DNA of 62,619 nt, filler included. It is 5 parts of 5 records of this genome, joined end to end, with 100 filler letters (N's around TTAATTAATTAA, not from the genome) between each part and the next. Parts side by side here need not be neighbours in the genome. Positions count along the whole stretch, not along the records: positions 12,199 to 40,211 come from DRR723986_4094; 4 more parts are not named here. One strand, given 5' to 3'. Below are positions 12,099-30,987 of this stretch, piece by piece. The position numbers and the translations under genes were made by a program. Position 1 is the first letter of the stretch. Each line of letters opens with the position of its first letter. Under the pieces are notes generated by a model. The model worked only from the letters and a program-made list of their open reading frames with translations, ran no database searches and had not been told where the DNA came from.

Positions 12099-12198
12099 NN
12101 NNNNNNNNNNNNNNNNNNNNNNNNNNNNNNNNNNNNNNNNNNTTAATTAATTAANNNNNNNNNNNNNNNNNNNNNNNNNNNNNNNNNNNNNNNNNNNN
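12099..12198. other. Artificial contig spacer
   Basis: 44 N + TTAATTAATTAA (stops in all six frames) + 44 N. Confidence 0.99.
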
Positions 12199-12210
12199 CC
12201 CCCCCCCCCC

Positions 12211-13846: not shown

Positions 13847-15222
13847 GCCATTGCTTCCTTCACGGCTGCCACAAGGGCGGCGATATCGTCATGGGTATGC
13901 ACCTCGGTCACGCAGAACAGGGCGGCGTTGCCCGCGATGCCCGGCTCTCCGGTCAGGTCCTTGCCGCCAAGGATGCCCTTGGCCCGCAGGCTCGCGTTGA
14001 CCTCGGCCACCGGCTTGTCGAAGACGGCGACGAACTCCTTGAACACGGGTTGCGACAGGTCCACGCGGACACCGTCCAGCGCGTCCAGACCCTCAGCCGC
14101 GAGACGCGCGCGCGCCATGATCAGGCGGCCCACCTCGGCAAAGCCCTCGGGGCCCATCGCCGCCATGTAGGCGGCATTGGCCAGCGACCACAGGTAGGTG
14201 GAATTCCCGGTCCAGTCCTTGCCCTCGTCGCGCATCCCGTAGGACGACTGGTGGAACAGCGTCAGGCCAAAGCCGAATTCCCCCGGCTCCCGCGTTTCGG
14301 AGATCGAGATGTTGAGCGTGTTGTATTCGCGCGCATAGCGCTCCTCGTCGGGAGAGGCGATGAAGCCGCCGACCCCGCCGCCGGCGTACATATGCACGCC
14401 CAAAGGCTGCGTCGGCCCCACGGCGATGGTCGCCCCATAGGCACCCGGCGCCTCCAGCAGGCCCAGCGACAGCGGGTCCACGCCCACGATCGCCTCGGCC
14501 CCGGCGGCCTTCGCCATGGCGCAGAGCGCACCGGGGTCGCCGTCGATCACCCCAAGATAGCCCGGCGTCTCGAAGTACAGCGCCGCCGCGCCCTCCAGCT
14601 TGGCCTTGAGGTCGGCGTGGTCGATGCAGCCATCCACGCCGACGGCGACCGTCACGATCTCGATATGCCGCGCCATCTCGGAGGGCTCGCAATAGGTCTC
14701 CAGCACCATCCGCCGCTCGGGGTCCATGACCGCCGGCACGACGACCTTCCGCCGCCTCGTCATCCGCGAGGCCATGCGCACCGCATGGCCCACCGCGCAG
14801 CCCCACGAGTAGACCGGCAGCCCGACGAAATCCATCTCGACCAAGGCGCCGATCTGGCTGGTGAACTCGAACCACGCCTGATTGCGCCCATGGTCCGAGG
14901 TCGGAGAGCCGAAGACGGAGGTCTGCCACTCGTACCGCCCCACGACCTCGTCACAGATCGCGGGCACGTAATGCGGCCATGCGCCCGCGCCCCGGAAACA
15001 GCGGCCTTGCGAGAACACCGTGTTCTTCGCCATCAGGTCGCCCAGATGCCGCGACAACGCCACCTCCGACGCCAGTTGCGGCGGCAGGTCGAGCGGACGC
15101 GCCATCCGGTGCCCCTCGGGGATCTGCGCGAACAGCTCCTCCACGTCCTTCACCCCCAGCGCGGCCAGCATCTCTGCCTTGGCCGTGCCGCCGGAATTCG
15201 CCATCCACGGATGCGCCTTCAT
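13843..15222 (-). CDS. gcvPA: Glycine dehydrogenase (decarboxylating) subunit 1-like, divergent
   Basis: EMLAALGV..VEELFAQIP, FRGAGAWPHYVP, DPLSLGLLEAPGAYGA, FCVTEVHT; 4-bp overlap with gcvPB-like gene. Confidence 0.85.
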   Translation of the reverse strand: MKAHPWMANSGGTAKAEMLAALGVKDVEELFAQIPEGHRMARPLDLPPQLASEVALSRHLGDLMAKNTVFSQGRCFRGAGAWPHYVPAICDEVVGRYEWQTSVFGSPTSDHGRNQAWFEFTSQIGALVEMDFVGLPVYSWGCAVGHAVRMASRMTRRRKVVVPAVMDPERRMVLETYCEPSEMARHIEIVTVAVGVDGCIDHADLKAKLEGAAALYFETPGYLGVIDGDPGALCAMAKAAGAEAIVGVDPLSLGLLEAPGAYGATIAVGPTQPLGVHMYAGGGVGGFIASPDEERYAREYNTLNISISETREPGEFGFGLTLFHQSSYGMRDEGKDWTGNSTYLWSLANAAYMAAMGPEGFAEVGRLIMARARLAAEGLDALDGVRVDLSQPVFKEFVAVFDKPVAEVNASLRAKGILGGKDLTGEPGIAGNAALFCVTEVHTHDDIAALVAAVKEAMA

Positions 15223-15237
15223 CTCTGTCTCCTTCGC

Positions 15238-16317
15238 TTACGCGACCACGCGCATCACCTGCCTGCGGCCCGGTCCGGTGATCACCGGCCAATAGCCCGC
15301 AAGCGCGGCATCCAGCGCCACGTCGCCCGTGTCGATCGTCAACTCCTGCGGGTTCAGCCCCGCAAGCTTTCCTGCGCCGCAGATCACGTCGATCGGCGGC
15401 ATCCCGGCGGCCCTCAGCACCGCCGGGGAAATCTGCTGGTTGCCGCGGCCCAGAACGAAGCCCTGCCCGCCCACGACGCCCAGAACCACGCGCACCCGCC
15501 GCCCCGAGACCCGCGCCAGAAGCGCCCGCTCGTCGAGATCCTCGGCCACGACAAGCCCCTCCTCGGCGACATCGACCCCCAGCAGGGTCCCGCCGCCCAG
15601 CCGCGCCTTCAGCGCCTTCATGGTGGCGCCGGGCCCCAGCACGTAGGTCACGCCCGGGTCCATCGCGGCCACGTAGCGCGCCAGCGCCGCATCAACCTCG
15701 GCCACGAAATCGCCGCTCCCGGCCTTGGGGTTCTGCCGCGCGCCGGCACCGTCGAAAGGCACCCGCGCCACGCAATAGAGCCGCGCCGAAAGCCGCCCCG
15801 CGCGCCGTGCCGCCTCGTCCAGATCCAGCACCTCGACCATCTCGACCCGCCGCCGGGGATCGGACAGAAAGGCCGCCGCCATCCGCCCGGCCCGCTCGGG
15901 CGAGCGTGCGAAGACGCCCGAATGCATCTTCACCCCCGAAGGGATGCCAAGGATCGGCAGGCCCGCCGTATTGGCGGCGCAGATGTCCCGCGCCGTGCCG
16001 TCGCCGCCCGCGAAAAGGATCAGATCGACCCGCCCCGCCATGGCCCGCACCGCCGCGGCCGTATCCTCTGCCGTCCCCGTCAAGCGCTCGGGACCGACCG
16101 CGACGACATCGCCGCCCGCGGGCAGAACCGGCCCGGCCAGCACCTCGGCGCCGCACTCCGCCCGAAAGGCAGCCAAAGCCCGCGCCGCCCGCGCGGGCGC
16201 CTGCCCCACGCGCCCCTCGGCGGCGGCCCGTGCCGCCAGCCCCGGCTCGTCGCTGCCCTTGCGGGCCAGCGCGCCACCCAGACCGGCCACCGGATTGACG
16301 ATCAGCCCCAACCGCAC
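15238..16317 (-). CDS. ATP-NAD kinase / AcoX-like family protein
   Basis: GLIVNPVAGLGG, GGDGT, GIPSGVKMHSGVFA, GQGFVLGRGNQQIS; GTG start at 16317 assumed. Confidence 0.85.
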   Translation of the reverse strand: MRLGLIVNPVAGLGGALARKGSDEPGLAARAAAEGRVGQAPARAARALAAFRAECGAEVLAGPVLPAGGDVVAVGPERLTGTAEDTAAAVRAMAGRVDLILFAGGDGTARDICAANTAGLPILGIPSGVKMHSGVFARSPERAGRMAAAFLSDPRRRVEMVEVLDLDEAARRAGRLSARLYCVARVPFDGAGARQNPKAGSGDFVAEVDAALARYVAAMDPGVTYVLGPGATMKALKARLGGGTLLGVDVAEEGLVVAEDLDERALLARVSGRRVRVVLGVVGGQGFVLGRGNQQISPAVLRAAGMPPIDVICGAGKLAGLNPQELTIDTGDVALDAALAGYWPVITGPGRRQVMRVVA

Positions 16318-16429
16318 GCTACCAAACTTTCCGTACTTTTGTTCGCATAATGAAACCTTGCCGAATCCCCATGGCCCGCGCAAGCAAAATCCGGCACTGC
16401 GCACCACCGGCCCAAAGGCCCGGCCCGCG

Positions 16430-16500
16430 CCCTGCTTCTTCTTGGGTCAAATACCGTGGGGGTGAGGCGCGCAGGCGCCGAGGGGGCAAAGCCCCCTGCC
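16430..16500. repeat. Short intergenic palindromic element
   Basis: CTTCTTCTTGGGTCAAATACC..GGGGGTGA..AGGGGGC-AAA-GCCCCCT; resembles, from recall, a dispersed Rhodobacteraceae element; one copy here. Confidence 0.4.
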
Positions 16501-16918
16501 CCGGCCCGAAACACCACTCGGACCGAAGCTTTCACGCGGATTCCCCGATCCTGTCCGCACCCGCGTGCTCTAGGGTTGGAACAGAACGACAGTGCGCTTG
16601 CCCGCGCTTCGAATTGACGTGGTTCTTCGCCTAAGCGTCGCACCATCCGATAAAGGACCGGCCAGACGCGGCGATCGTCGAAGGCGGTTTCGCGGACTCG
16701 AACGGCGACTAGGGAGGAGCGGTACGGCGCGGAAGCCCCGCGCCGTCGCATACGGCGATCCGGCGTTTCGTTGCCGGATCGCCGCTTGCGTGCCTACAGT
16801 GTAGGCGCCCGTGGCCCGCCGGGCCGCGCGCATGATCGCGCCCGGTCGCCGATGGCGGGAGCGGCGCGACGCTGCCCGCAGACCTGACCGTCAGGCCTTT
16901 CGCCGGCGCGACAGACGC

Positions 16919-17686
16919 TCAGCGTCCCATCCAGCCGCCATCGACGACGAGGATCTCGCCGTTGACGTAATCCGAGGCCGAGGAGGCGAGGAAAACCGCC
17001 GGTCCGGCGAAATCCTCAGGCCTGCCCCAGCGCCCGGCGGGGATGCGCTCGAGGATGGATTTCGACCGGTCCGGGTCGTCCTGCAGGGCCTGCGTGTTGT
17101 CGGTGGCGATATAGCCCGGCGCGATGGCGTTGACGTTCACGCCCTTGCCCGCCCATTCGTTGGCCAGAGCCTTCGTCAGCTGCCCGATGCCCCCCTTGGA
17201 GGCCGCATAGCCCGGCACGGTGATCCCGCCCTGAAAGGTCAGCAGCGAGGCGGTGAAGATGATCTTGCCGCCGCCGCGTTCCACCATGCCGCGCCCGATC
17301 TCGCGGCTCAGCACGAATTGCGCGGTAAGGTTGACCTCGATCACCTCGTCCCACCAGTCGTCGGGATGCTCGGCAGCGGGCTTGCGCTTGATGGTGCCGG
17401 CGTTGTTGATCAGGATATCGGGCTTGACGCCATCCGCCTCGAGCTGCGCGGCAAAGCCGCTCACCGCGGCGCGGTTCGAGAAATCGCACTGATAAGCCGT
17501 GAACCTGCGGCCCAAGGCCGTGACCGCCTGCTCCACCTCGGACCCGGGTGCCAGCGAGGCGCTGACCCCCACGATATCGGCCCCGGCCTGAGCCAGCGCC
17601 TCGGCCATGCCGCGGCCGATGCCGCGCTTGGCCCCGGTGACGACGGCGGTCTTGCCGCTCAGGTCGAAGGACTGAAGGACGCTCAT
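16919..17686 (-). CDS. kduD: KduD-like SDR; putative 2,5-diketo-3-deoxy-galactonate 5-reductase
   Basis: TGAKRGIG, NNAG, ASLLTFQGGITVPGYAASKGG, IAPGYIATDNT. Confidence 0.85.
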   Translation of the reverse strand: MSVLQSFDLSGKTAVVTGAKRGIGRGMAEALAQAGADIVGVSASLAPGSEVEQAVTALGRRFTAYQCDFSNRAAVSGFAAQLEADGVKPDILINNAGTIKRKPAAEHPDDWWDEVIEVNLTAQFVLSREIGRGMVERGGGKIIFTASLLTFQGGITVPGYAASKGGIGQLTKALANEWAGKGVNVNAIAPGYIATDNTQALQDDPDRSKSILERIPAGRWGRPEDFAGPAVFLASSASDYVNGEILVVDGGWMGR

Positions 17687-18717
17687 GCAAACTCTCCTAC
17701 CTTGATGAGGCTTTTCAACGCCGTCGGGCTGGCATCCAGCGCCTCGAAGGCCTTTTGGATATCGCCCAGCGGGCTGACATCGGTGATGACCGTGTCCGCC
17801 GCGATGGCGCCCCGGGCCACCAGCTCGATCGCCTTGTCGTAATCCTCGGGTTCATAGACCCGCGCGCCGATCAACTTCAACTCTCGCCAGAAGAACTGGA
17901 ACATGTCGACGACCGGCTTCTTCGCATGGATCGCGACCATGCAGATGCGCCCGCGCGTCGCCGCCACGGCGGTCATGGCATCGACGCCCGGTTGCGTGCC
18001 CGAGACCTCGAAGACCACGTCGGCCCCCTTGCCGCCGGTGCGGCCCTCGATCTCGGCCTTCAGATCGGCCTCCATCGGGTTGACCGTGTCGAAGCCCAGC
18101 GTCTGCGCGACCTTGAGGCGATGCGGATTGACCTCGGAGATCACCACCTTGCCGCCGGCCTCCCGCGCCACCATGGCGACCAGCACGCCGATGGGGCCGC
18201 CGCCGATGACGACGACATCCTCGCCAGCCTCAAGCCCCGACAGTCGCACATCATGGCAGGCGACGGCGACCGGCTCTATCAATGCCGCGTGGTCCAGCCG
18301 CATCCCCTCGGGCAGGGCGTGCAGGGTGAAGGCGGGCACGTTCCACAGCTGTTGCATGGCGCCATCGGTGTCCAGCCCGATGAATTTCAGGTTGTGGCTG
18401 ATGTGGTGATGGCCGGCTTCCGTCGCCGGGTTGGGAGCCCCGGGATCCAGCGGCCGGACCACGATGGCATCCCCCTCGGACCAGCCGTCCACACCCTCGC
18501 CCACGGCGGCGATCACGCCCGACATCTCATGGCCGAGGATGCGGTCGAACCCGACGCGGGCGTCCATGTTGCCGTGATAGGCGTGCAGGTCGGTGCCGCA
18601 GATGCCGCAATAGGCCACGCGGACCTGAACCTCGCCCCGTGCGGGGGGACGGGCCTCGATTTCCTTGACCTCGAAGGTCTTGTTCCCGCGGTAATAGGCG
18701 GCGGTGATGGTGCTCAT
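17683..18717 (-). CDS. Zn-dependent dehydrogenase; putative 2-keto-3-deoxy-L-galactonate 5-dehydrogenase
   Basis: [18 protein letters not shown]; lacks the structural-Zn cysteine cluster; lies between cycloisomerase and KduD-like genes. Confidence 0.8.
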
Positions 18718-19814
18718 GCGCTCTTGTCCTCATGTGCTGCATTCAGTTTGTCCCAGTCGAACTCCACCCCCGTGCCCGGGGTGTCGGGGGCCACGGCCCT
18801 GTGGTCCTCGACCACCAGCGGGCGGTGGGTGTAGGCATCGATCGGGAAGGAGTGGACCTCGATCCAGCCGGGGTTGGGTTGCGCAGAGACGAGGCTGACG
18901 TGCAATTCCTGCATCCCGTGGCTGCAGACCGGAAGTCCGTGCCTGCGGCTGAGTTCGGCCACCTGCAACCAGCCGGTGATGCCGCCGCAATTGCTGGCGT
19001 CGGGCTGGATGAAGGACAGCCGGGCATCCTCGAGGGCATACTCGAACTCATGGATCGTGTGCAGGTTCTCGCCCATGGCCAGCGGCATCCCCGTGGCCTC
19101 GGCAATCCGGCCATAGCCCTTGTAATCGTCCGGGATCGTCGGCTCTTCGAACCACGTCAGGTCGTAGGGTGCAAAGGCCCGCACGGCCTCGATCGCCTGC
19201 TCCACGCTCATGGCGTAGTTGGCATCGACCATGAAGGCCACGTCCGGTCCGATCAATTCGCGCACCGCCTCGATGCGGGCCACGTCCTCGGCCAGCGTGG
19301 GTTGGCCGATCTTGATCTTCACGCCGTCGAAGCCCCGCGCGAGGTAGCCCCGGATGCTGTCCAGAAGCTTGGGCAGCGGAAAGTTCAGGTCGATCCCCCC
19401 GGCATAGGCCCGGCAGCGGCGGTCCGTGCCGCCCGCCATCTTCCACAGCGGCTGGCCGCTGCGTTTGCCGCGCAGATCCCAGAGCGCGATATCCACCGCC
19501 GAGATCGCGAAGGAGGCGATGCCGCCCCGCGCGACGTAATGCACATGCCATTGCATCGCCTCGTACAGCGCCTCGACGTCCTCGGCATCGCGCCCCACGA
19601 GGAAAGGCGCCAGATCGTGGCGGATCATGGCCACGATCGCATGGCCGCCGCGCCCGCCGGTGTAGCTGTAGCCGGTGCCTTCGCTGCCGTCCTCCAGCGT
19701 CACCGTGGCGGTGATCAGCTCGAAATGCGTGTGGTCGCCGTGTTTGGCATCGCTCAGCACCTCGGCCAGCGGCACGTTGAACAGCCGCGCCTCGACCTTC
19801 GTTATCTTCGTCAT
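18714..19814 (-). CDS. Mandelate-racemase/enolase superfamily; putative 3,6-anhydro-L-galactonate cycloisomerase
   Basis: Real start MTKITK at 19814. KIK, DAN, WFEEP, GEN, QPD motifs; [28 protein letters not shown] and EVHSFPID match my recollection of Vibrio sp. EJY3 ACI. Confidence 0.85.
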
Positions 19815-20806
19815 TGCATGGCTCCCTTGGAACGGCTGGCCAGATGGCTTTGCAGAAGGATCACGGCGAAGAGGAACCCGCCCCGGATGACCATCTGCCA
19901 ATAGGCGCTCAGGCTGATGACGCCCCGCCCGTTTTCGAAGTTGAGGATGTTGAAGACCAGCCCCAATAGCAAGGCACCGGCGACCGTCGCGCCCACCGAG
20001 CCCATGCCGCCGGTCAGCAGCGTGCCGCCGACCACGACCGAGGCGATGGCCGAAAGCTCCCATCCCACGCCTTCCAGCGGCTGGCCCGCGCCGAAGCCCG
20101 AGGCCAGAAAGACCCCCGCCAGCCCGCCACACGCGCCGCTGAGCGCGTAGACGAAGACCTTGGCGCGGGTCACGTCCAGCCCCATCATGGTCGAGGCATC
20201 CTCTCCCCCGCCCACCGCCAGCACCGTGCGGCCCAGCGAGGTGCGCTCCAGCACGATCCAGAGCGCGACGACCACCACGGCGGTGATGACGATGGTCCAT
20301 GGCAGGAGGCCGAAGGCCTTCTCCATCCCCAGCCTGGTGAAGTTGGAGCCCCAGTCGATGGAGATCGTCTGCGCCCCCGAAATGACCAGAGCCCCGCCCT
20401 TGGCCCCCAGCATGGTGGCCAGCGTGGCGATGAAGGGCGGGATGCGCATGGCGACGACGAAAAGCGCGTTCAGGCCCCCGATCGCCAGCCCTGCCAGCAC
20501 CGCGCCGGGCAGTGCCACCTGAATGCCGTAGGGCGAGAGGTAGGCCGCGATGACAGAGGTGAAGGCCGCGACCGACCCGACCGAAAGGTCGATGCCGCCG
20601 GTCAGGATGACGAAGCACATGCCGACCGAGATCACGATGAACATCGCGTTGTAGTTCAGGAAGGACGAGATGTTGTAGGCGCCGCCGAAGTTCTCGTAGC
20701 GCATCAGCCCGAAGAGGATCATCGCGACCAGCGCCACCCAGACCCCGAAGGAATGCCCGCCGCCGCGCAGGTAGCGCCGCAGGTCCAAAGCCGTTGTGTC
20801 CAGCAT
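19811..20806 (-). CDS. Sugar ABC transporter permease (YjfF-like)
   Basis: [31 protein letters not shown]. Confidence 0.92.
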
Positions 20807-20809
20807 GTC

Positions 20810-21781
20810 TTACTCCTTGCGCGCCTGTTGCAGGTAGACGGCGGCGATGATGATGCCCGCCTTGGCGATCAGCGCGACCTCGTCGGCGATGCCATTGGCC
20901 AGCAGGGTGTATTTCACCAGCTGGATGATGACCGCGCCCAGCACGGCGCCGAAGATCGGCGCGCGTCCGCCCTGCAGCAGCGTGCCGCCCACGACCGCTG
21001 CGGCGATGGCGTCCAGCTCCATGAGGTTGCCGATGCGGGCCGCGTCCGAGGCAGAGTTGATCGCCACGACGATCAGCCCCGCAAGCCCCGACAGCCCGGC
21101 ACAGATCACATAGGCTCCGATCTTGACCCGGTGCACCGGGATGCCCGACAGCCGCGCCGCGCGCTCGTTGCCGCCGACGGCCAGCAACTGCCGGCCAAAG
21201 ACCGACCGCGTGACGACCCAGAACAGCACCAGCGCGATCAGCAGCACCAGCCAGCCCTGAAACGGCAGGCCCAGCACGCGCCCGGTGCCAAGGTAGCTGA
21301 ACGAGGGGTTGGAGAAGGTCTGCAGGTTGCCGTTGGTCAGCACCTGCGCCAGCCCGCGCCCCGAGATGAAGAAGATCAGCGTGGCCACGATGGGCTGCAC
21401 GTTCAGCACGCTGACGAGGACGCCGTTGAAGACGCCGCAGCACAGCGCCACGAGGATCGGCACGAGGATCGACGCGGCCAGCCCCAGCCCGGGGTTGGCC
21501 GTGGCGAATTCCGACAGGAAGATCAGCGGCGCCAGCGCGCCCGACAGCGCCATCACCGCGCCGACGCTGAGGTCGATGCCGCCGGTGGCGATCACCAGCG
21601 TCATGCCCATCGCGACGATGGCGATGGTCGCCACTTGGCTGATGTTGACGAACAGCGTCTGCGTCTGAAGGAAGTTCGGCGTCACGGCGAGGTTGAACAG
21701 CACGATCGCGACCAGCGCCAGCAAGGCGCCGTGGCGGGAGGTATCGAAGCGCCCCCCCATCGAGGCAAGCGTCCGGGTCAC
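20810..21781 (-). CDS. Sugar ABC transporter permease (YtfT-like)
   Basis: [43 protein letters not shown]. Confidence 0.92.
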
Positions 21782-23298
21782 GCGGCGTTCCTTTCGTGAT
21801 GATGTGCGATGGCGTTGATCAGGGCGCTTTCGGTCACGCCCGGGTTCCGCAATTCGCTGACCGACGCGCCATCCTGCAGCACCACGATGCGGTCGGCGCC
21901 TTCCACCAGCTCCTCGAATTCCGAACTGATGAGCAGCACGGCCAAGCCCTCGGCCACCTGCTTGCGGATGATCGACTGGATCTCGAACTTCGCCCCCACG
22001 TCGACGCCGCGCGTCGGTTCGTCGAGGATCAGCAGTTCGGGCTCCAGCGCCAGCCAGCGGGCCAGAAGAACCTTCTGCTGATTGCCACCCGACAATTCGC
22101 GGATCGGCTGCTCCATGCCCGAGGTCTTGATCTGCAGGGCCTCGATATAATGCTGCACCAGCTTGCGCTCGCGGTCGCGGTCCACCGCGCCCATGCGTTT
22201 CAGCTTTGGCAGCAGCGCGAGGGTGATGTTCTCGCGCACGGACATATGCGGGATGATGCCGTCGGCCTTGCGATCCTCGGTCAGGAAGCCCAGCCCGAGC
22301 GCGATGGCCTGCGCCGGCGTGTCCAGAGGCGCGCCGGAATGGTGGCGCACCGCCCCCTCGCTGAGCGCATCGAGGCCGAAGACCGCCCGCGCCGCCTCTG
22401 TCCGGCCCGACCCCAGCAATCCGCCCAGCCCCACGATCTCGCGCTTGCGGATGGTGAAGGAGGCGCCGCGCAACCCGGTCTTGCTGCGCAGGCCCTTGGC
22501 CTCCAGCAGCACTTCGCCGGGGTCGCTCTGCCCGCCGGACAGCGCGGTCACGCCCGCGGCCTGGATCTCGCTCGCATCGCGGCCCAGCATTTCCGAAACC
22601 AGCCCCAGCTTGGTGGTCCCGGCGACCTCATGCGTGGCGACCGTCCGGCCATCGCGCATGATCGTGACGCGGTCGCAGATCTGGTAAAGCTCGTTCAGGA
22701 AATGCGAGATATAAAGCACCGCAACGCCCGAGGCCTTCAGGCTTCGCACCACGGAAAACAGCGTCGCGATCTCCTGATCGTCGAGCGAGGATGTCGCCTC
22801 GTCCATGATGACCAGCCTGGCATCCAGCGACACCGCCCGCGCAATGGCGACCAACTGCTGGATGGCGGTGGAGTAGCTGCCCAGCGGGCGCGTCACATCC
22901 ACGTCGACGCCGAAGCGCGCAAGGATCTCGCGGGTGCGGGCATGGGCGGCCTTCCAGTCGATCAGGCCAAGCCGGGTGCGCGGCTCGTAACCCATGACGA
23001 CGTTCTCCGTCACGCTGCGCAGGGGCACGAGGCTGAGTTCCTGATAGATGGTGGCGATGCCCGCATCCTGCGCCTCGCGCGGGGTGGTGATGGTCAGCGG
23101 CGCTCCGTTCATCCGCACGTCGCCCGCGTCGCGGCGGTAGACGCCGGTCAGGATCTTGATCAGCGTCGATTTCCCGGCGCCGTTCTGGCCGATGATCGCG
23201 TGCACCTCGCCCGGGCGGATGGCAAGGCTGGCATCCTTCAAGGCGACGATGCCGGCAAAGGATTTCCCGATGCCCGTCATCTCGATGAGGTCAGTCAT
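21778..23298 (-). CDS. Sugar ABC transporter ATP-binding protein (tandem NBD)
   Basis: [31 protein letters not shown]. Confidence 0.95.
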
Positions 23299-23357
23299 GT
23301 GGTATCCGATCGTGAAAGACCGGAGGACGCGGCAAAGGCGTCCTCCGGAGACAAGCC

Positions 23358-24332
23358 TCAGTAGGCTTCGTCGATGTGGTCGGCCGCGTTGTCCCGGGTG
23401 AAGACGCGGTCTTCGACCTGGACCCAGCCGGGGATCTCCTCACCGGCGGCGTATTTCTTCATCACCTCGCAGGCCAGCGGCCCGAAGAAGGGCGAGCTTT
23501 CCACCGTGACGCCCATCTTGCCGTCGATGATCGCCTGAAGCGCATCACGGGTGCCGTCGATGGACACGATGGTCACGTCCTCGCCCGGCTTGCGGCCCGC
23601 CAGTTCCAGCGCCTGAATCGCGCCGATGGCCATTTCGTCGTTGTGGGCATAGACGACATTGACGTCCGGATGCGCCTGCAGCAGCGTTTCCATGACCTGA
23701 CGGCCCATGTCGCGGGCGAAGTCGCCGGTCTGGCTGGCGACGATCTCGAAGCGGTCGTCCTGCGCGATCCGGTCGTCGAAGCCCTTCTTGCGGTCGTTGG
23801 CGGGCGAGGAGCCGGTGGTGCCCTCGAGTTCCACGATCACGCCCTTCTCGCCGTCGAAGTTCTCGATCAGCCACTCGGCCGCGCGCTCGCCCTGGTCGAT
23901 GAAGTCGGACCCGAGGAAGGCCACGAAATGCTCGCCCGCCTTGGCGACGTTCGGATCGACGGAGCGGTCGACGAGGAAGGTGGGGATGCCCGCGGCCTTG
24001 GCCTTCATCACGGCGGGGATCAGCGGCTTTTCCTCGCGCGGGGGCAGGAAGAGCACGTCGATGCCCTGGGCGATCATGCTGTCCACATCGGCCACCTGCT
24101 TCGCGGCGGAGCCTGCGGCATCGGTGGCGATCAGGTCCCAGTTGCAGGCCTCGGCGGTGTCGTGGAACGACTTGGTTTCCGCGATGCGCCACGGGTTGTT
24201 GCTTTCCATCTGCGCGAAGCCGACCTTGTAGCGCTCCTTCTGCGCCAGCGGCGGGGTTTCGGCGCCGGCAATCCCTGCGCCCATTGCGACCAGCGCCGAA
24301 AGCGCGGTGCCCAGAACCATACGTCTCTTCAT
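23358..24332 (-). CDS. Periplasmic sugar-binding protein (YtfQ-like)
   Basis: Signal peptide; VGFAQMESNNPWRIAET, ELEGTTGSSPANDRKKGF, AHNDEMAIGA, SIDG. Confidence 0.9.
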   Translation of the reverse strand: MKRRMVLGTALSALVAMGAGIAGAETPPLAQKERYKVGFAQMESNNPWRIAETKSFHDTAEACNWDLIATDAAGSAAKQVADVDSMIAQGIDVLFLPPREEKPLIPAVMKAKAAGIPTFLVDRSVDPNVAKAGEHFVAFLGSDFIDQGERAAEWLIENFDGEKGVIVELEGTTGSSPANDRKKGFDDRIAQDDRFEIVASQTGDFARDMGRQVMETLLQAHPDVNVVYAHNDEMAIGAIQALELAGRKPGEDVTIVSIDGTRDALQAIIDGKMGVTVESSPFFGPLACEVMKKYAAGEEIPGWVQVEDRVFTRDNAADHIDEAY

Positions 24333-24386
24333 GTCATTTCCTCCCAGAAAATGCGGCGTTTCTTCGTGGTGCCGCGGCGAACCGGT

Positions 24387-25847
24387 CTATTCCCAGTTCA
24401 TGTAAAGGGTCTGCTTGCGCAGATACCCGTCGAAGCCGTATTTCCCGTCTTCCCCGCCAAGGCCCGAGTGCCCCCAGCCGTTGTGAAACGCCTGAAACTG
24501 CTCGCCATTGGCGCGGTTGACGTAGATCTCGCCGAAGTTGAGCCGGTAGGGTGCCTGCATCAGGCGCCGGTGGTTCTGCGTGAAGATGTAGGCAGACAGC
24601 CCGTAATCGGTGTCGTTCGCCATGTGCAGGGCGGTGTCGAAGTCATCCACGCGCACCGCGGGCACCACCGGGCCAAAGACCTCCTGCTGGATCACGGGCG
24701 AGGCGTTGTCCTTCACTTCGAGCACGGTCGGCGCGTACCAATGGCCGCGCAGATAGGGGCCTTCGGTCAGCGGCCCGCCCTCCAGCAGGACCTCTGCGCC
24801 CCCGGCCACGGCGGCATCGACGATGGACTTGACCTTGTCGACCTCGGCGCCGCTGACCTTGGGGCCCATGTCGGGGTCGGTCATCGGGTCGCCGATGGTC
24901 AGCGCGCGCGAGGCGGCGACGAATTTCTCGAGGAATTCATCGGCGATGTCCTTGTGCAGGTACATCCGCTCGTTGCAGGTGCAGATCTGGCCGCAGTTGG
25001 TGTAGCGGGCCGTGACCGCGGCGGCGACGGCGCGGTCGATCCGGGCATCCTCCATGACGATGAAGGGCGCCTTGCCGCCCAGTTCCAGCCGCAGCACCTT
25101 CATCTCGTCCGCCGCAGAGCGGAAGATCTCGCGCCCGGCGCGGTTCGATCCGGTCATGGAGATCAGGGCGGTATCGGGGTGCTCGACGAGGGCCCGCCCC
25201 ACCACGGCGCCGCGCCCCGTCACGACGTTGAGGACGCCCGCCGGGATGCCCGCCTCTTCGGCCAGCGCGGCGATGAAGAGGCCCGAGAAGGGCGTGATCT
25301 CATGCGCCAGCAGGACGAAGGCATTCCCTGCCACCAGCGCCGGTCCGATCTTGCGCGCCGCCAGTGCCGCCGGGTAGTTCCATGCGGTCAGGCCGACGAC
25401 CACGCCGTAGGGATGGCGGCGGATCTGGATCTCCTCGTCGGGATTGTCTGAGGCGATGATGTCCCCCTCGATCCGCCGCGCGTTTTCGGCGGCATGGTCG
25501 AGGAACCCCACCACGGCGCCCACTTCGCCCCGCGCCTGACCGATCGGCTTGCCCTGCTCGCGGGTGATGAGGACGGCAAGCTCTTCGGCCCGCCCCGACA
25601 CCAGCTGCGCCAGCTTGCGCACCGCGCGGCCACGCTCCACCGCCGGGCGGGCGACCCATGCAGGCTGCGCCTTGCGGGCGGCGGCCACGGCGCGGGCGGC
25701 ATCCTCTGCGCTGCCCTCCGGGATCGTGCCGATGATCGTGTCATCCGCCGGGTTCTCGACTTCTATCAGCGCGCCGGGACGCGGCGCGATCCACTGGCCG
25801 CCGATCAGCATCCGCGCGTCGATGGCTTGGGTGGTTTCGAATATCAT
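24387..25847 (-). CDS. Aldehyde dehydrogenase (AldA-like); putative 3,6-anhydro-galactose dehydrogenase
   Basis: TAWNYP, MTGS, LELGGKAP, NCGQICTCNER, EVFGP, GEIYVNR..GEQ..FHNG..SG.GGEDGKYG; substrate from cluster context. Confidence 0.85.
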   Translation of the reverse strand: MIFETTQAIDARMLIGGQWIAPRPGALIEVENPADDTIIGTIPEGSAEDAARAVAAARKAQPAWVARPAVERGRAVRKLAQLVSGRAEELAVLITREQGKPIGQARGEVGAVVGFLDHAAENARRIEGDIIASDNPDEEIQIRRHPYGVVVGLTAWNYPAALAARKIGPALVAGNAFVLLAHEITPFSGLFIAALAEEAGIPAGVLNVVTGRGAVVGRALVEHPDTALISMTGSNRAGREIFRSAADEMKVLRLELGGKAPFIVMEDARIDRAVAAAVTARYTNCGQICTCNERMYLHKDIADEFLEKFVAASRALTIGDPMTDPDMGPKVSGAEVDKVKSIVDAAVAGGAEVLLEGGPLTEGPYLRGHWYAPTVLEVKDNASPVIQQEVFGPVVPAVRVDDFDTALHMANDTDYGLSAYIFTQNHRRLMQAPYRLNFGEIYVNRANGEQFQAFHNGWGHSGLGGEDGKYGFDGYLRKQTLYMNWE

Positions 25848-25856
25848 CTGCGTCCC

Positions 25857-25871
25857 TTTGGTATGACCAAA
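25857..25871. promoter_or_regulatory. FadR/PdhR-type operator 1
   Basis: Palindrome TTTGGT-ATG-ACCAAA about 10 nt upstream of the ALDH start. Confidence 0.75.
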
Positions 25872-25963
25872 TTTACGCAAACATCGAATCAAACGCGCGA
25901 TCCGTCAACTGAAAACTTCAGATATTGCGGTTCACCGGCAGGTATGCCTTCATGCGGCCTATA

Positions 25964-25978
25964 TTTGGTAGGTCCAAA
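25964..25978. promoter_or_regulatory. FadR/PdhR-type operator 2
   Basis: TTTGGT-AGG-TCCAAA just before the GGGAGG RBS of the GMC gene. Confidence 0.7.
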
Positions 25979-25991
25979 ATGGGAGGCAAAG

Positions 25992-27608
25992 GTGGAAGAG
26001 TTCGACCATATCGTCATTGGCGGCGGGGCCGCGGGCTGCGTCGCCGCCGGTCGTTTGGCTTCGGATGGCGGGGCGCGGGTCCTGCTGCTGGAGGCGGGGT
26101 ATTCCAACCGGCACCCCTTGCTCGACATGCCGCCCGGCATCTTCAAGATGATCAACGGCACCCGCTTCATGCGCTACCACAAGACGGTGCCGCAGGCGCA
26201 TCTGGGCGGGCGGGTGCATGACATCCCGCAGGGCCATGTCCTTGGCGGCGGCTCTTCGGTGAACGCGCAGGTCTACATGCGCGGGCGGCCCTCGGATTAC
26301 GACGGCTGGCAGGCGCGGCTGCACGGCTCCAACGACCCCGTGGATTGGAGCTGGGAGGCGGTGCTGCCCCACTTCCGCCGGATGGAGGGCAACAACCGCC
26401 TGCACGACGACCGCCACGGCGCCGAGGGGCCGCTGCTGGTGTCCGACCCGGGCCATATCGACGGCCTGTCGCGGCTTTTCGTGCAGGCGGTTCAGGGGCT
26501 GGGGCTGCCCTTCACCCATGACTTCAACGGCGCGCGGCAGACCGGCGTCGGCTTCTACCAGTTCATGAACCGCAACGGGCGGCGCTCTTCGGCCGCCTAT
26601 GCCTATGTCACCCCGCAGAAGGACAACCCGAACCTGACCGTCAGGCTGCGGGCAGAGGTGTCGCGCATCGACATCGAAAACGGGCGCGCCGTGGGCGTCA
26701 CCTACCGCGACAGGACCGGCGCGCATCGGGTGCGCTGCAACGGCGAGGTGATCCTGTCCGCCGGCTCCCTCGTGACGCCCAAGATCCTGATGCTGTCCGG
26801 GATCGGCCCCGCCGATCACCTTGCCGCGCACGGCATCGCCTGCCTCGCCGATCTGCCCGGCGTCGGCCAGAACCTCGTCGATCACCCCGAAGTGCCGATC
26901 ACCGCGCGGGTCAACGGCCCCTATGGCTATTTCAGGCAGGGCGAGGGCTGGCGGATGCTGCGCAACGGGGTGCAGTTCAAGCTCTTCGGCTCCGGTCCCG
27001 TCACCTCGGCCGGGGTCGAGGCGGGCGCCTTCGTGAATCCCGCCGACCCCGAGGGCGACCCGACGATCCAGGCCTTCTGCGTGCCCATCGTCTACGTCGA
27101 CCGCGACACGCGCGATCTGGTCGAGGATGGCCACGGGCTGACCGTCACCACGGTGGTCGTCAAGCCACGCTCGCGCGGAGAGGTGCGGCTGGCCTCCGCG
27201 GACCCGGCGGCCATGCCGCTGCTCTCGCCCAACCTGCTGAAGGACCCCGCCGACATGGACGAGATGGTGGCGGGTCAGCGCTATTTCCTGCGCGCCTTCG
27301 AACAGGCCCCGCTGGCCGACAAGATCGACCGCGTGATGCTGCCCGCCCCCGACCAGCGCGACGACGAGGGCCTGCGCGCCTATTGCCGCCGCTTCGTCAA
27401 GACGAACTACCACCCCGCCGGCACCGCCCGCATGGGGCGCGATGGCGATCCGATGGCGGTGCTCGATCCGCGGATGCGTGTGCGCGGGATCGACGGTCTG
27501 CGGGTTTGCGATCTGTCTGCGATGCCGGATATCAATGCCGGAAACACACAGGCGCCCGCGATGATGCTGGGCGACAGATGCGCCGATCTGGTGATGGGTG
27601 TACTGTAA
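25992..27608 (+). CDS. GMC-family FAD oxidoreductase
   Basis: GTG start after GGGAGG; IGGGAAG, LLLEAG, LGGGSSVNAQVYMRG, LMLSGIGP, YHPAGTARMG, GNT; no signal peptide seen. Confidence 0.93.
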   Translation: MEEFDHIVIGGGAAGCVAAGRLASDGGARVLLLEAGYSNRHPLLDMPPGIFKMINGTRFMRYHKTVPQAHLGGRVHDIPQGHVLGGGSSVNAQVYMRGRPSDYDGWQARLHGSNDPVDWSWEAVLPHFRRMEGNNRLHDDRHGAEGPLLVSDPGHIDGLSRLFVQAVQGLGLPFTHDFNGARQTGVGFYQFMNRNGRRSSAAYAYVTPQKDNPNLTVRLRAEVSRIDIENGRAVGVTYRDRTGAHRVRCNGEVILSAGSLVTPKILMLSGIGPADHLAAHGIACLADLPGVGQNLVDHPEVPITARVNGPYGYFRQGEGWRMLRNGVQFKLFGSGPVTSAGVEAGAFVNPADPEGDPTIQAFCVPIVYVDRDTRDLVEDGHGLTVTTVVVKPRSRGEVRLASADPAAMPLLSPNLLKDPADMDEMVAGQRYFLRAFEQAPLADKIDRVMLPAPDQRDDEGLRAYCRRFVKTNYHPAGTARMGRDGDPMAVLDPRMRVRGIDGLRVCDLSAMPDINAGNTQAPAMMLGDRCADLVMGVL

Positions 27609-27618
27609 GGACCAGCGG

Positions 27619-28350
27619 ATGACGGAGACCCTCATGCCCGGGACGAACGAGAGCAAATTGGGACGCGCCGCCGATACGGTCGTGCGACAGCTTTCCGCGA
27701 AGATCCAGTCGGGCGAATATTCCGACGGCACCCCCCTGCCCCCCGAACGCCTTCTGATGGAGGAATTCGGCATCAGTCGCACCGTGGTCCGCGAAGCGGT
27801 GCAGAGCCTGTCGAAACAGGGATTGCTCGAAGCCCGCCCCCGACACCGCCCGATCGTGCGCAAACCCGGCTACGATGCGGCGATCTCGGCGATGGAATCC
27901 GTGGTGAGCCATCTGCTGACCGACTCGGGCGGGGTGAAGAACCTGTTCGACACCCGTATCCTGATGGAGGCCGCGCTGGTGCGGCAGGCCGCGCAACAGG
28001 CGCGCAAGGACGACATCGCGGCGCTGAAGGCCGCGCTCGAGGCGAACGAGGCCGCCATCGACGACAGCGAGGAATTCTACCGCACCGACCGGGCCTTCCA
28101 CGCGCTGCTCTATGAGATTCCGCGCAACCCCGTGCTTCCGGCGCTGCACAAGGCCTATGTCACATGGCTGGCGCCGCAGTGGTCGCGGATGCCGCGCCTG
28201 CCGGAACGCAACCGCGCCAACTTCGAGGCGCACGAGCGGATCTTCGACGCCATCCTGATGCGCGATCCCGACGGTGCCGAGGCCGCCCTGCGCAGCCATC
28301 TGGAACAGGCCTGGGATCAGGTCTGCAAAACCTTCGGGGATGACCTTTAG
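27619..28350 (+). CDS. GntR/FadR-family transcriptional regulator (FCD domain)
   Basis: LPPERLLMEEFGISRTVVREA wHTH; DRAFH, EAHERIFDAI..RDPDGAEAALRSHL. Confidence 0.95.
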   Translation: MTETLMPGTNESKLGRAADTVVRQLSAKIQSGEYSDGTPLPPERLLMEEFGISRTVVREAVQSLSKQGLLEARPRHRPIVRKPGYDAAISAMESVVSHLLTDSGGVKNLFDTRILMEAALVRQAAQQARKDDIAALKAALEANEAAIDDSEEFYRTDRAFHALLYEIPRNPVLPALHKAYVTWLAPQWSRMPRLPERNRANFEAHERIFDAILMRDPDGAEAALRSHLEQAWDQVCKTFGDDL

Positions 28351-28852
28351 GTTCGGGTCTTGTTGGATTTTGGGCCAGAGGAACGCGGGTCGTCGTGGGG
28401 CTCTGCATCCAGAGGGGCCTGTCGACGGTCTTCACGCGATGGCCGGATTGGCGCCCGACTTCGGGATTTTGCCGATCAGGGCTGACTCGGTCCGGCGCTC
28501 CAGTGCAGGACGCCCCTCCCCCCGGATCATGCGCCTGGCCACCAATCGGCTTCCCGTCGATACGCGTCCGGTCGGGCGAGCGGTCAGGACCCCCGCTCAG
28601 GCCGATAGGGGCGCAAACCCCTGTAAAGACTGGACAACGCGCCATATGACATGGAGGCGCGCGCCCCGCCCTTCGGGTCGCCTCTGCGATCGCCCTCCCC
28701 CGCGGTCCGCAGCCTGTGGAAAAAAATGTTGTTAAACGAAATCTTGCGTGCAATTAAGTGAGTTGACGCCAGACGACGAAAACCGCGCCGTTTAGCGTCG
28801 AGAGGCAAGCGGCCCGACAAGAGGCCGCCCTACAGAGCGGGACATCGGAACA

Positions 28853-30055
28853 ATGACACTGTCCGACAACAGTACAAGCGCCTTCAGTGTAAGCGCGGCG
28901 ATTGCTGCCAATGCGGCACGCCTGTCGCAGGCGCTGAACGATCACATGCGCAACAGCTTTCAGCCCGAAAGCCGCAAGGCGCTGCGGCGGTTCAGCGCGG
29001 CCGAGGTCTCTGAACTGACCGGCATCAGCATGTCGAACCTGCGAACCCGGCATCAGGACGGGGATTTTCCGGAGGTCGAAACCGACACCCGGGGGCGCCG
29101 CTTCTACACCGCCGAGGAAATCGACAAGATCCGCCACATCATGGCCCGCACCGGCCGCAATGGCGACGCCTACCTGCCGGGACGCCGCGACGGCGACAAG
29201 CTGCAGGTCATCAGCATCGTCAACTTCAAGGGCGGCTCGTCCAAGACGACATCGGCCATCCACCTCGCCCAGCGGTACGCCCTGCGCGGCTATCGGGTGC
29301 TGGCGCTGGACATGGACCCGCAGGCCTCTCTGACGACCATGTTCGGCTACCGGCCGGAACTGGAATTCGCCGAGTCTGGCACGATCTACGACGCGCTGCG
29401 CTATCAGGACCCGGTCCCGTTGAGCCGTGTGATCCGCAAGACCTACTTCCACAACCTCGACCTTGCGCCCGCCGGGCTGATGCTGTCGGAATACGAGACA
29501 GAGACCGCTTATGCGCTGCAACACCGGGTCGAGCCGGCGTTCACCCAGCGTCTGACCATCGCCCTCGATGAGGTCGAGGCCGACTACGACCTCGTCATCA
29601 TAGACTGCCCGCCCCAGTTGGGGTTCACGACGATGTCGGCGCTGCTGGCCTCCACCGGGCTCTTGATCACGGTCGTGCCGTCCATGCTGGACGTGGCCTC
29701 CATGGCCCAGTTCCTCGAAATGGCCGGAGAGACGATCCGCGCGCTCGAAGAGGTCTCTGGCTCCATCGACTGGGATTTCCTGAAGTTCCTCGTCGCCCGG
29801 TTCGAACCGACGGACGTGCCGCAATCGCAGATGGCGGGGTTCCTGCGCTCCATCCTGCTGGATCAGGTCCTGACGACCCCGATGCTGAAGTCGACCGCGA
29901 TTTCCGATGCCGGGATGACCCAGCAGACCGTCTACGAGATCGACCCGAGCCAGGTCGTGCGCAAGACATTGGAGCGTGTGCTCGAAAGCGTGAACGGCGT
30001 GGCGGATGAATTCGAGGCCACGATACAGGCCGCATGGGGACGGAGGACTGACTGA
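28853..30055 (+). CDS. repA: Plasmid partitioning ATPase RepA
   Basis: N-terminal HTH, NFKGGSSKTT, DMDPQASL, IDCPPQLG, MLKSTAISDAG. Confidence 0.96.
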   Translation: MTLSDNSTSAFSVSAAIAANAARLSQALNDHMRNSFQPESRKALRRFSAAEVSELTGISMSNLRTRHQDGDFPEVETDTRGRRFYTAEEIDKIRHIMARTGRNGDAYLPGRRDGDKLQVISIVNFKGGSSKTTSAIHLAQRYALRGYRVLALDMDPQASLTTMFGYRPELEFAESGTIYDALRYQDPVPLSRVIRKTYFHNLDLAPAGLMLSEYETETAYALQHRVEPAFTQRLTIALDEVEADYDLVIIDCPPQLGFTTMSALLASTGLLITVVPSMLDVASMAQFLEMAGETIRALEEVSGSIDWDFLKFLVARFEPTDVPQSQMAGFLRSILLDQVLTTPMLKSTAISDAGMTQQTVYEIDPSQVVRKTLERVLESVNGVADEFEATIQAAWGRRTD

Positions 30056-30987
30056 TGGCGCGACGCAACCTGTTCCAGCCCCCTCCCCCGCCGAGCGAGG
30101 CCCCTGCCCCCGAAAGCCGCTTTCCCGCCACCGGCGCCATGAGCGGCGTGCGCTCGACGCTCAAGGACCTGTCGAACAACGCGGTCCGCGAGCTCGAGAC
30201 AGAGCTGATCGACGATGGCGGTCCCTCCGACCGGCTAGCCTTCGGCGAGGCCGATGTGGCGGAACTGGCCGAGAGCATCCGCGCCCACGGCCAGCAAGTG
30301 CCGATCATGGTGCGTACCCTGCCCTCTCAGCCCGGACGCTTCCAGATCGTCTATGGCCGGCGGCGTCTCATGGCGCTGCGGGTGCTGGGCCAGCGCGCCA
30401 AGGCCTTGGTGCGCACGCTCGACGACGAAGAGGCGCTGTTTGCCCAAAGTCACGAGAACAACCAGCGGCTCGACCCCTCTTTCATCGAAAAGGCCCTTTT
30501 CCTGCGCGAGCTGACGAACGCAGGCTACGCTGACGAGGCGATCCGCGATGCGCTCGCCGTCGATGCGCCGATGTTTTCGCGAATGAAGTCCATCGCGGGC
30601 ACGATCCCGGTCGATGTCATCCACGAGATCGGCCCTGCGCACGGGATTGGACGCCGGCGGTGGGAGGCCTTGGCAAAACGGGCCGCGGCGCAATCCGTGG
30701 ACCTCTCCGCCTTCGCGAAGACCCTGCACTTGAAGGACATCCCCGGGTCGGTCGAACGGTTCGAGCGGCTTGCGGCGGCCGTGGACGGCCTTGTCGCTGC
30801 GCCCAAGCCCGAAAGCCGGTTGGTGGTCGTGGACGGCCACAGGCTGGGAGAATTGAGGCCCACCGCCCGCGCCCTGACCCTGAAGATGGTCCGTGCGGAC
30901 AATCCGGGCTTTACCGAATGGCTCGAAGACAACGCCGAAGACGCGTTGCGCGGGCTGTATGAGGCCTGGCAGTCGCACCGCGACTGA
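30055..30987 (+). CDS. repB: Plasmid partitioning protein RepB
   Basis: ParB box GQQVPIMVR, YGRRR, ENNQRLDPSFIEKALF, IGPAHGIGRRRW. Confidence 0.95.
   Translation: MARRNLFQPPPPPSEAPAPESRFPATGAMSGVRSTLKDLSNNAVRELETELIDDGGPSDRLAFGEADVAELAESIRAHGQQVPIMVRTLPSQPGRFQIVYGRRRLMALRVLGQRAKALVRTLDDEEALFAQSHENNQRLDPSFIEKALFLRELTNAGYADEAIRDALAVDAPMFSRMKSIAGTIPVDVIHEIGPAHGIGRRRWEALAKRAAAQSVDLSAFAKTLHLKDIPGSVERFERLAAAVDGLVAAPKPESRLVVVDGHRLGELRPTARALTLKMVRADNPGFTEWLEDNAEDALRGLYEAWQSHRD

Follow-up and report, generated by a model that had tools for sequence, protein, structure and literature searches.

A putative operon for uptake and catabolism of 3,6-anhydro-L-galactose on a repABC replicon from the Rhodobacterales

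3,6-Anhydro-L-galactose (L-AHG, or simply AHG) is an unusual sugar of red-seaweed agar and accounts for about half of agarose. To our knowledge, its breakdown has been elucidated in no more than a few agar degraders among the Gammaproteobacteria, Bacteroidota and Streptomyces. Here, we describe a gene cluster at positions 16919–28350 of a 62.6-kb stretch of DNA (the whole stretch analyzed is called “the window” below). Judging from its genes, this repABC-borne cluster of a Rhodobacterales bacterium is in all probability a regulated operon for the uptake and catabolism of free L-AHG.

[quoted passage not shown] The same passages summarize five enzymes for this route in Pseudoalteromonas atlantica T6c and Postechiella marina: AHG dehydrogenase, AHGA cycloisomerase (ACI), L-KDGal 5-dehydrogenase, L-DDGal 5-reductase and KDG kinase. 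Vibrio sp. EJY3 performs the two opening reactions with VEJY3_09240 (AHG dehydrogenase) and VEJY3_09370 (cycloisomerase). The D-AHG pathway of Zobellia galactanivorans (DauA, DauB, DauC, and DauD) follows the same logic in its first two steps, an aldehyde dehydrogenase (ALDH) and then an enolase-superfamily cycloisomerase, and in the part of PMC5698469 that concerns this route it continues with a KDGal kinase and an aldolase. In the relevant section of PMC5849685, a segment of adjacent genes in the agarose utilization locus of Bacteroides uniformis NP1 is presented as a putative pathway for AHG, its importer being RhaT-like.

The window joins five contigs by four linkers of the form N44-TTAATTAATTAA-N44 (12099–12198, 40212–40311, 49476–49575, and 56446–56545), and the cluster lies within the second contig (12199–40211, 28,013 bp). 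GC content is 64–70% across this contig, in 2-kb windows fully inside it, and shifts at the joins to about 56–62% for positions 1–12098 and to 45–57% for the parts after 40211. The five pieces may come from different replicons or even from different organisms; the flanking pieces are separate contigs, differ in GC content (45–62%), and are uninformative on the cluster. Genes were called from open reading frame listing, codon-position GC, and scans with Pfam and NCBIfam models. Eight genes run on the minus strand in the order ALDH, four-gene ABC importer, enolase-superfamily enzyme, medium-chain zinc-dependent alcohol dehydrogenase (Zn-ADH) and KduD-like short-chain dehydrogenase/reductase (SDR), while a GMC-family FAD oxidoreductase and a GntR/FCD regulator diverge from the ALDH gene across a spacer of 144 nt. 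This is the gene run claimed in an earlier note made from the letters alone, bounded by the stop codons of the SDR gene (16919) and of the regulator gene (28350). At four of the seven junctions between the minus-strand genes the reading frames overlap by 4 nt, and the other three, by coordinates, are separated by 3, 54, and 59 nt; because of these overlaps and short gaps, the eight genes fit a single transcript. A consensus scan of 16300–28900 was uninformative, giving no promoter-like site and six terminator-like sites against 6.4 expected.

Furthermore, replication genes in the order repA-repB-repC start 503 nt downstream of the regulator gene. They are repA (28853–30055, plus strand; TIGR03453 RepA, 563.9 bits, cut-off 348.45), repB (30055–30987, plus strand; TIGR03454 RepB, 276.8 bits, cut-off 201.5) and repC (31223–32341, plus strand; NF040974 RepC, 193.8 bits, cut-off 150). 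Because all three exceed their NCBIfam cut-offs on the contig of the operon itself, the operon is carried on a repABC plasmid or chromid, and the plasmid-borne location put forward earlier is borne out to that extent. No exact terminal overlap of 16–200 nt was found in a circularity test of the 28-kb contig, which is thus not closed.

The enolase-superfamily protein (18714–19814, minus strand), a member of the mandelate-racemase subgroup, is annotated here as 3,6-anhydro-L-galactonate cycloisomerase (EC 5.5.1.25). It aligns to the ACI of Vibrio sp. EJY3 (VejACI, PDB 5XD7) over 357 columns with a single one-residue gap (581.9 bits, E 5.8e-174), and a hand count in the alignment gives 238 identical columns. 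The next scores are 331.6 bits for 2OVL, 208.1 for L-talarate/galactarate dehydratase, and 153.3 for the D-specific DauB (5OLC). The protein had been said to follow the EJY3 enzyme closely along its length, on the strength of four motifs: all four are indeed in the alignment, and no grouping with acid-sugar dehydratases is seen. Both proteins keep KIK, the metal-ligand stretches MVDANY, WFEEP, and AMGENL (D/E/E), QPDASN, and a histidine that is replaced by asparagine in the variant entry 5XD9. We take the KxK, acidic metal-ligand, Asp, and His motifs to have the roles usual in the mandelate-racemase subgroup. The start codon, an ATG at 19814, lies in a 4-nt overlap with the upstream stop codon. 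On this comparison, the protein can be regarded as an orthologue of L-AHGA cycloisomerase that carries the catalytic residues of its subgroup.

Downstream of ACI, the Zn-ADH (17683–18717, minus strand; Pfam ADH_N and ADH_zinc_N) is a candidate L-KDGal 5-dehydrogenase (EC 1.1.1.389). It has GHE and GGGPIG motifs, no NCBIfam match at cut-off, and a nearest structure at 144.9 bits. Its gene directly follows that of ACI in 37 of 80 related loci (see below). Many medium-chain dehydrogenases bind a structural zinc through a cysteine cluster at residues of about 90–115; in this protein the catalytic Cys/GHE motifs are present and no such cluster is seen. The last gene of the run encodes a KduD-type SDR (16919–17686, minus strand), a candidate L-DDGal 5-reductase (EC 1.1.1.127) that would yield KDG. 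It scores 329.4 bits against the kduD model TIGR01832, 9.45 below the cut-off of 338.85, and 279.5 bits against PDB 4Z9Y, and contains the motifs TGxxxGIG, NNAG, and YAASK. Because L-KDGal and KDG differ only at C5, the pair of Zn-ADH and KduD-type SDR is readily understood as an epimerization through a 5-keto compound.

The first gene of the operon encodes an ALDH (24387–25847, minus strand; Pfam Aldedh, 495 bits), a candidate 3,6-anhydro-L-galactose dehydrogenase (EC 1.2.1.92). Its reading frame is open to 25892, and the start was placed at the ATG at 25847, which is preceded by an AAGGGA ribosome-binding site. Among solved structures, 6J75 is its best match (489.5 bits); 3K2W reaches 459.5 and E. 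coli AldA 411.7, and the active-site stretches ELGGKAP and NCGQICTCNER are seen in the alignment to 6J75. Table 2 of PMC10163077 lists 6J75 as an L-AHG dehydrogenase of Vibrio. The score order and the gene context make this ALDH a candidate AHG dehydrogenase. A quick tree, in which distant ALDHs and AldA of E. coli served as outgroups and which covers none of the ALDHs of Vibrio, Pseudoalteromonas, and Zobellia, joins the ALDH of the window in one clade with 12 ALDHs from clusters of the same type (support 100 by this quick method) and does not set this clade apart from AldA.

Between the ALDH and ACI genes lie those of a four-component importer of the CUT2 class: a YtfQ-like periplasmic sugar-binding protein (23358–24332, minus strand; Pfam Peripla_BP_4) with the N-terminal signal peptide MKRRMVLGTALSALVAMGAGIAGA, a YtfR-like ATPase with two fused nucleotide-binding domains (21778–23298, minus strand; ABC_tran twice), and two BPD_transp_2 permeases, one YtfT-like (20810–21781, minus strand) and the other YjfF-like (19811–20806, minus strand). 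The E. coli galactofuranose transporter YtfQRT-YjfF has the same four-gene architecture, and the best NCBIfam match of each protein is the corresponding model of that system. Unlike in the E. coli system, the scores stay far below the cut-offs (YtfQ 242.5 bits against 510, YtfR 554.2 against 850, YtfT 199.6 against 535, and YjfF 192.3 against 363), and the genes are embedded in a catabolic operon that is probably for another sugar. The nearest solved relatives of the binding protein are furanose binders of the YtfQ type: 6HYH, 6HBD, and 6HB0, each titled “YtfQ,” at about 233 bits, 2VK2 YtfQ at 182.7, and 5OCP at 178. Because free AHG carries a tetrahydrofuran ring, a furanose-type pocket for this sugar is plausible, and the binding protein is a candidate AHG receptor; the ligand could also be another furanose-like sugar. 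A phrase search for an AHG transporter, with most subscription journals outside its scope, returned nothing, and the only importer met in the literature covered is the putative RhaT-like one in the section of PMC5849685 noted above.

The GMC-family FAD oxidoreductase (25992–27608, plus strand), of the choline-dehydrogenase/alcohol-oxidase type, has a GTG start with a GGGAGG site and the Pfam domains GMC_oxred_N and GMC_oxred_C. Its best structural match is the chloramphenicol-inactivating oxidoreductase 8B7S (360.6 bits), and other solved relatives are alcohol oxidases, choline oxidase/dehydrogenase, and hydroxymethylfurfural (HMF) oxidase. The nearest of these oxidize primary alcohols and aldehyde hydrates. 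The BetA/BetB pair, choline dehydrogenase and betaine-aldehyde dehydrogenase, is likewise a GMC flavoenzyme accompanied by an ALDH. Unlike BetA, the protein of the window lies below both choline dehydrogenase cut-offs (NF002550, 472.1 against 605; TIGR01810, 385.8 against 732.1), and its assignment as BetA was rejected. A GMC orthologue (at least 55% identity) occurs in 14 of the 17 related loci with either of two ALDH types versus 1 of the 63 without an ALDH, counts that are not phylogenetically independent, and never accompanies the ACI-ZnADH-SDR triad alone. Because its solved relatives act on primary alcohols and aldehyde hydrates, the enzyme may belong to the upper, sugar-to-acid part of the pathway.

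The regulator (27598–28350, plus strand, with a predicted start) belongs to the FadR (FCD) subfamily of the GntR family (Pfam GntR and FCD), and among NCBIfam models it comes closest to the NanR subfamily (194.4 bits, cut-off 260). Operators of FadR-subfamily regulators are palindromes of the t.GT...AC.a type. In the spacer, a candidate operator of this type is found at 25859–25869: it is the perfect palindrome TGGTCATACCA in minus-strand reading and lies 12–22 nt upstream of the ALDH start. A second, imperfect candidate at 25966–25976, TGGTAGGTCCA on the plus strand, has one mismatch to TGGTNNNACCA and lies 16–26 nt upstream of the GMC start. Of the 13 loci whose ALDH is of this type, the window among them, 11 have TGGTNNNACCA with no more than one mismatch at the same ALDH-proximal position, and ten of these copies are perfect; as background, 0.014 perfect copies per 300 nt would be expected. 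A distal site of this kind, at 167–218 nt, is also present in five other loci. The two loci that have no site (L033 and L049) have no FadR homologue either. This pattern fits a FadR-type repressor that would control both divergent units through the TGGTNNNACCA candidate operators.

Unlike Vibrio sp. EJY3, the host is an alphaproteobacterium, a marine member of the Rhodobacterales, and a repABC replicon carries the candidate genes for the two opening reactions in one operon with an ABC importer, Zn-ADH, and KduD-type SDR, to which the GMC oxidoreductase and the FadR-type regulator are attached. Set beside the route of P. atlantica and Postechiella, it has a candidate for each of steps one to four within a single operon, and after the transporter genes the order is that of the pathway; unlike in that route, KDG kinase and 2-keto-3-deoxy-6-phosphogluconate (KDPG) aldolase were not found on the contig. 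Parallels in gene content are found in plasmids of agarolytic Bacteroidota, which carry the segment described for B. uniformis NP1 in PMC5849685. In pBUN1 of B. uniformis and pSD15 of Microscilla, genes for Zn-ADH, SDR, aldA, and ACI stand side by side, followed by a mutarotase and a RhaT-like symporter, and sit among GH117-like and GH2-like genes. The identities of Zn-ADH, SDR, ALDH, and ACI are 55.5, 71.5, 47.8, and 70.1% to the pBUN1 proteins and 49.7, 69.9, 43.9, and 68.8% to those of pSD15. In pBUN1, a sugar kinase follows the symporter and a GH117-like gene lies in the same locus, and on pSD15 the GH117 match is about 40 kb away. Unlike these plasmids, the window has a binding-protein ABC system, and no glycoside hydrolase or RhaT was found on its contig.

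The distribution of the cluster was followed from ACI. A search of PLSDB with this protein gave 18 records at 60% identity or more and one at 58.5%, with the next best at 45.4%, so that a clear gap separates ACI orthologues (58–82%) from other matches (45% or less). Among species-representative genomes, 592 of 600 candidate stretches encode an ACI relative, and gene context was recorded within 10 kb of ACI for the best 80 (74–92% identity), 51 of which have at least 9 kb on both sides. These 80 loci belong mostly to Rhodobacterales and Hyphomicrobiales (Rhizobiaceae, Stappiaceae, and Phyllobacteriaceae), and the nearest ACI among them is that of Meridianimarinicoccus aquatilis (92–93% identical). 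The ACI-ZnADH-SDR triad is found in 37 of the 80, a FadR homologue in 34, a KDG-kinase-like gene in 17, and a GMC orthologue in 15. The ALDH of the type in the window is present in 11, as is the corresponding binding protein, and a distant ALDH (38–43% identity) occurs in six, five of which have a different ABC system (“type 2”). Neither a GH117 nor a RhaT match was found in any of the 80. Triad, ALDH, ABC system, and GMC oxidoreductase are together in six loci, and in every locus with the ALDH of the window (“type 1”) the transporter genes lie between those of ALDH and ACI. The closest complete cluster among the 80 is that of Paracoccus homiensis DSM 17862, with 71–89% identity for all ten proteins, and a plasmid of Jannaschia sp. 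M317 has the ten-gene cluster (60–84% protein identity) plus a sugar kinase. In both, gene content is kept, and so is gene order apart from the GMC/regulator pair.

There are several variants of this arrangement. The type-2 clusters (L010, L013, L020, L028, and L062) share the order GMC oxidoreductase (59–62% identity), different ABC system (ATPase 38–40%), ALDH (41–43%), FadR, and ACI-ZnADH-SDR. In a plasmid of Rhodobacteraceae bacterium S2214 (CP081162.1, 3044–10161), FadR, ACI (81.7%), Zn-ADH, and SDR genes adjoin a TRAP transporter and repA/repB, and no ALDH is seen nearby. Because organic acids are the usual cargo of TRAP systems, the S2214 variant may take up the acid AHGA instead of the sugar. 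Lone ACI genes occur as well, for example at 9998–11098 of locus L046, between Tad-pilus, Hint-domain, and PLP-enzyme genes. In five genomes with a lone ACI, an ALDH orthologue is encoded elsewhere in two (66–68%) and a Zn-ADH orthologue elsewhere in three (60–65%). The lone ACI orthologues of L046 and of genomes G008 and G011 are 78–80% identical to the protein of the window. A quick tree of ACI from 82 public loci, labeled by gene context, was examined for a separate paralogue clade of the lone copies; this idea was rejected, as the context labels are intermingled. In PLSDB, ACI orthologues of 58–73% identity are also found on plasmids from bacteria that are not marine, namely Variovorax paradoxus (from legume roots), Mesorhizobium ciceri, Enterobacter hormaechei, Priestia megaterium, and Geobacillus stearothermophilus.

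Taken together, the proposed route would operate as follows; the ligand of the transporter, the substrates of the enzymes, the effector of the regulator, and the role of the GMC enzyme are all predictions from homology and gene context. The secreted YtfQ-like protein would capture the sugar in the periplasm, and the CUT2 ABC transporter, with two permeases and one double ATPase, would import it. The ALDH would oxidize the aldehyde of free (hydrated) AHG with NAD(P)+ to AHGA, and the cycloisomerase would remove the alpha proton and open the 3,6-anhydro ring to give L-KDGal. Then, the Zn-ADH would oxidize C5 of L-KDGal and the KduD-type SDR would re-reduce it with the opposite stereochemistry, a net C5 epimerization yielding KDG, which a kinase and an aldolase encoded elsewhere would channel into the Entner-Doudoroff pathway. 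The FadR-type regulator would repress both divergent units via the TGGTNNNACCA operators until an acid of the pathway releases it. The GMC flavoenzyme, as part of the upper module, would most likely oxidize an alcohol or aldehyde hydrate in parallel to, or ahead of, the ALDH. The earlier suggestion that four pathway steps, importer, and regulator sit together in one locus holds to the extent that sequence can show it, with candidate genes for each of the four.

Several observations weigh against a function in L-AHG use, and one competing explanation is an operon for some other sugar of the aldehyde type or for a sugar acid. Its substrate might be the D enantiomer, as found in carrageenan, a further anhydro- or deoxy-sugar, or an acid imported as such, and the ACI clade would then be broader in specificity than the one tested Vibrio enzyme. 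ACI has no partner genes nearby in 23 of the 82 public loci of its tree (74–93% identity), where it can stand alone among unrelated genes even at 75–80% identity, as in L046, and no ALDH or Zn-ADH orthologue was found in two (G008 and G011) of the five lone-ACI genomes. The clade may have another substrate in some roseobacters; the tree with its intermingled contexts shows no separate “AHG” subclade, and plasmids of soil, plant-associated, and enterobacterial species also carry orthologues. GH117 is the only family that we know of as releasing AHG. No match to the GH117 protein of pBUN1, a query that matched its controls pBUN1 and pSD15, was found in the genomes of seven relatives (G001–G007, carriers of this transporter-type cluster or of the nearest ACI) or in the Jannaschia plasmid, which leaves the source of free AHG unexplained. 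At the lower end of the pathway, tblastn with the sugar kinase of the Jannaschia cluster gave no match in the window at E 1e-3, and no aldolase domain is present among the scanned genes of the contig. As for the Zn-ADH, NCBIfam, a structure search, and a large protein collection gave no close characterized or solved relative; at least 120 homologues with 73–94% identity, from Rhodobacterales, are among the matches listed of 7,964, under generic or wrong names. Against another substrate, ACI scores far higher with the L-specific enzyme than with DauB (581.9 versus 153.3 bits), and L and D cycloisomerases are only 31–35% identical to each other in the comparison given in PMC5698469, which also identifies 5OLC as DauB, a D-AHGA cycloisomerase. 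Because the Zn-ADH/KduD pair is present and a KDGal kinase and aldolase are absent from the cluster, the gene set fits the L route, for which this C5 oxidation-reduction pair takes the place of the kinase and aldolase, and not the D route, for which it would be superfluous; membership of the Dau pathway was rejected on these grounds. Moreover, the same enzyme set is found in true agar loci, where the counterparts in the Bacteroidota plasmids are 49.7–55.5% (Zn-ADH, beside SDR-aldA-ACI) and 69.9–71.5% (SDR) identical. We therefore hold a different sugar or acid to be an unlikely substrate.

Less probable still is a chance neighborhood of ordinary functions that form no single pathway: an importer for galactofuranose or arabinofuranose, AldA as a lactaldehyde dehydrogenase, KduD of the pectin type, and an alcohol dehydrogenase without relation to the others. 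What speaks for it comes from the ALDH and the importer. With NF007497, the model for aldehyde dehydrogenase of the E. coli type, the ALDH scores 491.5 bits, below the cut-off of 500, and it is 43.9% identical to AldA as compared with 43.9–47.8% to the ALDHs of Bacteroidota agar loci. In the tree, an AldA-like group is supported at 97 by the same quick method, within which the type-1, type-2, and Bacteroidota agar-locus ALDHs and E. coli AldA form a four-way split without order, and the ALDH is accordingly not separated from AldA. The transporter proteins find their best matches in the E. coli galactofuranose system, with none of the four above the Ytf/Yjf equivalog cut-offs. A chance assembly is hard to reconcile with eight genes packed with 4-nt overlaps or short gaps, with the recurrence of the same gene set across genera and two alphaproteobacterial orders together with one conserved operator, and with the invariable position of the transporter genes between ALDH and ACI in type-1 loci. 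Apart from its function, the location of the L-AHG cluster also admits another view: it might be chromosomal, lie on a chromid, or come from an organism other than that of the rest of the assembly, and no small transferable plasmid would then be involved. The unclosed contig, the lack of conjugation or mobilization genes seen on it, its GC content strongly unlike that of the other contigs of the window, and the many related loci (of the 80) on contigs of hundreds of kilobases to megabases, including records titled chromosomes, lend this view some substance. It is possible and yet the less favored option, given repA, repB, and repC above their cut-offs on the operon's own contig; the closest complete examples in PLSDB are plasmids too, those of Jannaschia M317 (71.7 kb) and Rhodobacteraceae S2214 (120.6 kb, with repA/repB adjoining the ACI cluster).

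The rest of the window has its own features. The contig of the operon starts with a run of 12 C (12199–12210), probably an end artefact of assembly or sequencing. Downstream of the operon, at 12302–16407 on the minus strand, are genes for a 389-aa protein with NAD-kinase domains (no NCBIfam match at 1e-10) and then for GcvPA and GcvPB, both above their cut-offs, and no GcvT or GcvH is present among the scanned genes of the contig; a plasmid-borne split glycine dehydrogenase with an NAD-kinase-like gene is an unusual pairing. On the other side, at 32554–39908, are genes for an ABC importer of the peptide type (a family-5 binding protein with two permeases and two ATPases), together with a cupin-HTH regulator, a protein with a GAF domain, and a polysaccharide deacetylase; no link of these to agar is obvious. 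In the last contig (60674–62509, minus strand), a 611-aa protein with carrier (PP-binding) and condensation domains, in appearance a stand-alone module like those of non-ribosomal peptide synthetases (NRPS), is encoded near a fatty-acid desaturase and a LuxR-type regulator. In the relatives, a Pfam search for GH16 in five genomes gave matches in two (open frames of 267 and 290 aa), which have no bearing on agarase activity.

The pathway as such is not new; candidate additions to it are the ABC importer, the pair of operator and regulator, and the GMC enzyme. No published description of the pathway in roseobacters or Rhodobacter was found in a literature search that left most subscription journals outside its scope. 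In public records the genes have generic or wrong names, such as mandelate racemase, aldA, zinc alcohol dehydrogenase, and even bacteriochlorophyllide dehydrogenase; generic annotation does hide the system, as had been anticipated, and the L-AHG assignment corrects a systematic annotation gap. Both a candidate transporter for AHG and a candidate sensor/operator pair are available from this locus, and an AHG importer, its regulator, and its operator would be useful parts for engineering the fermentation of red seaweed.

The lack of a GH117 match in the seven relatives hints at scavenging of free AHG: the sugar would have to be set free by other organisms, unless the physiological substrate differs from what homology suggests. 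Tentatively, one may imagine that non-agarolytic bacteria of the Roseobacter group (GH117 in none of seven relatives) scavenge L-AHG, or a close derivative, released by their neighbors by means of a mobile module, in which the YtfQ-like ABC system would be the first high-affinity AHG importer identified and the GMC enzyme an unrecognized upper step, such as one that oxidizes the aldehyde hydrate or the reduced sugar alcohol. The presence of the enzyme set with a binding-protein importer on Rhodobacterales repABC replicons, in relatives that have no GH117 match, points to cross-feeding on products of agar degradation in seaweed-associated communities.

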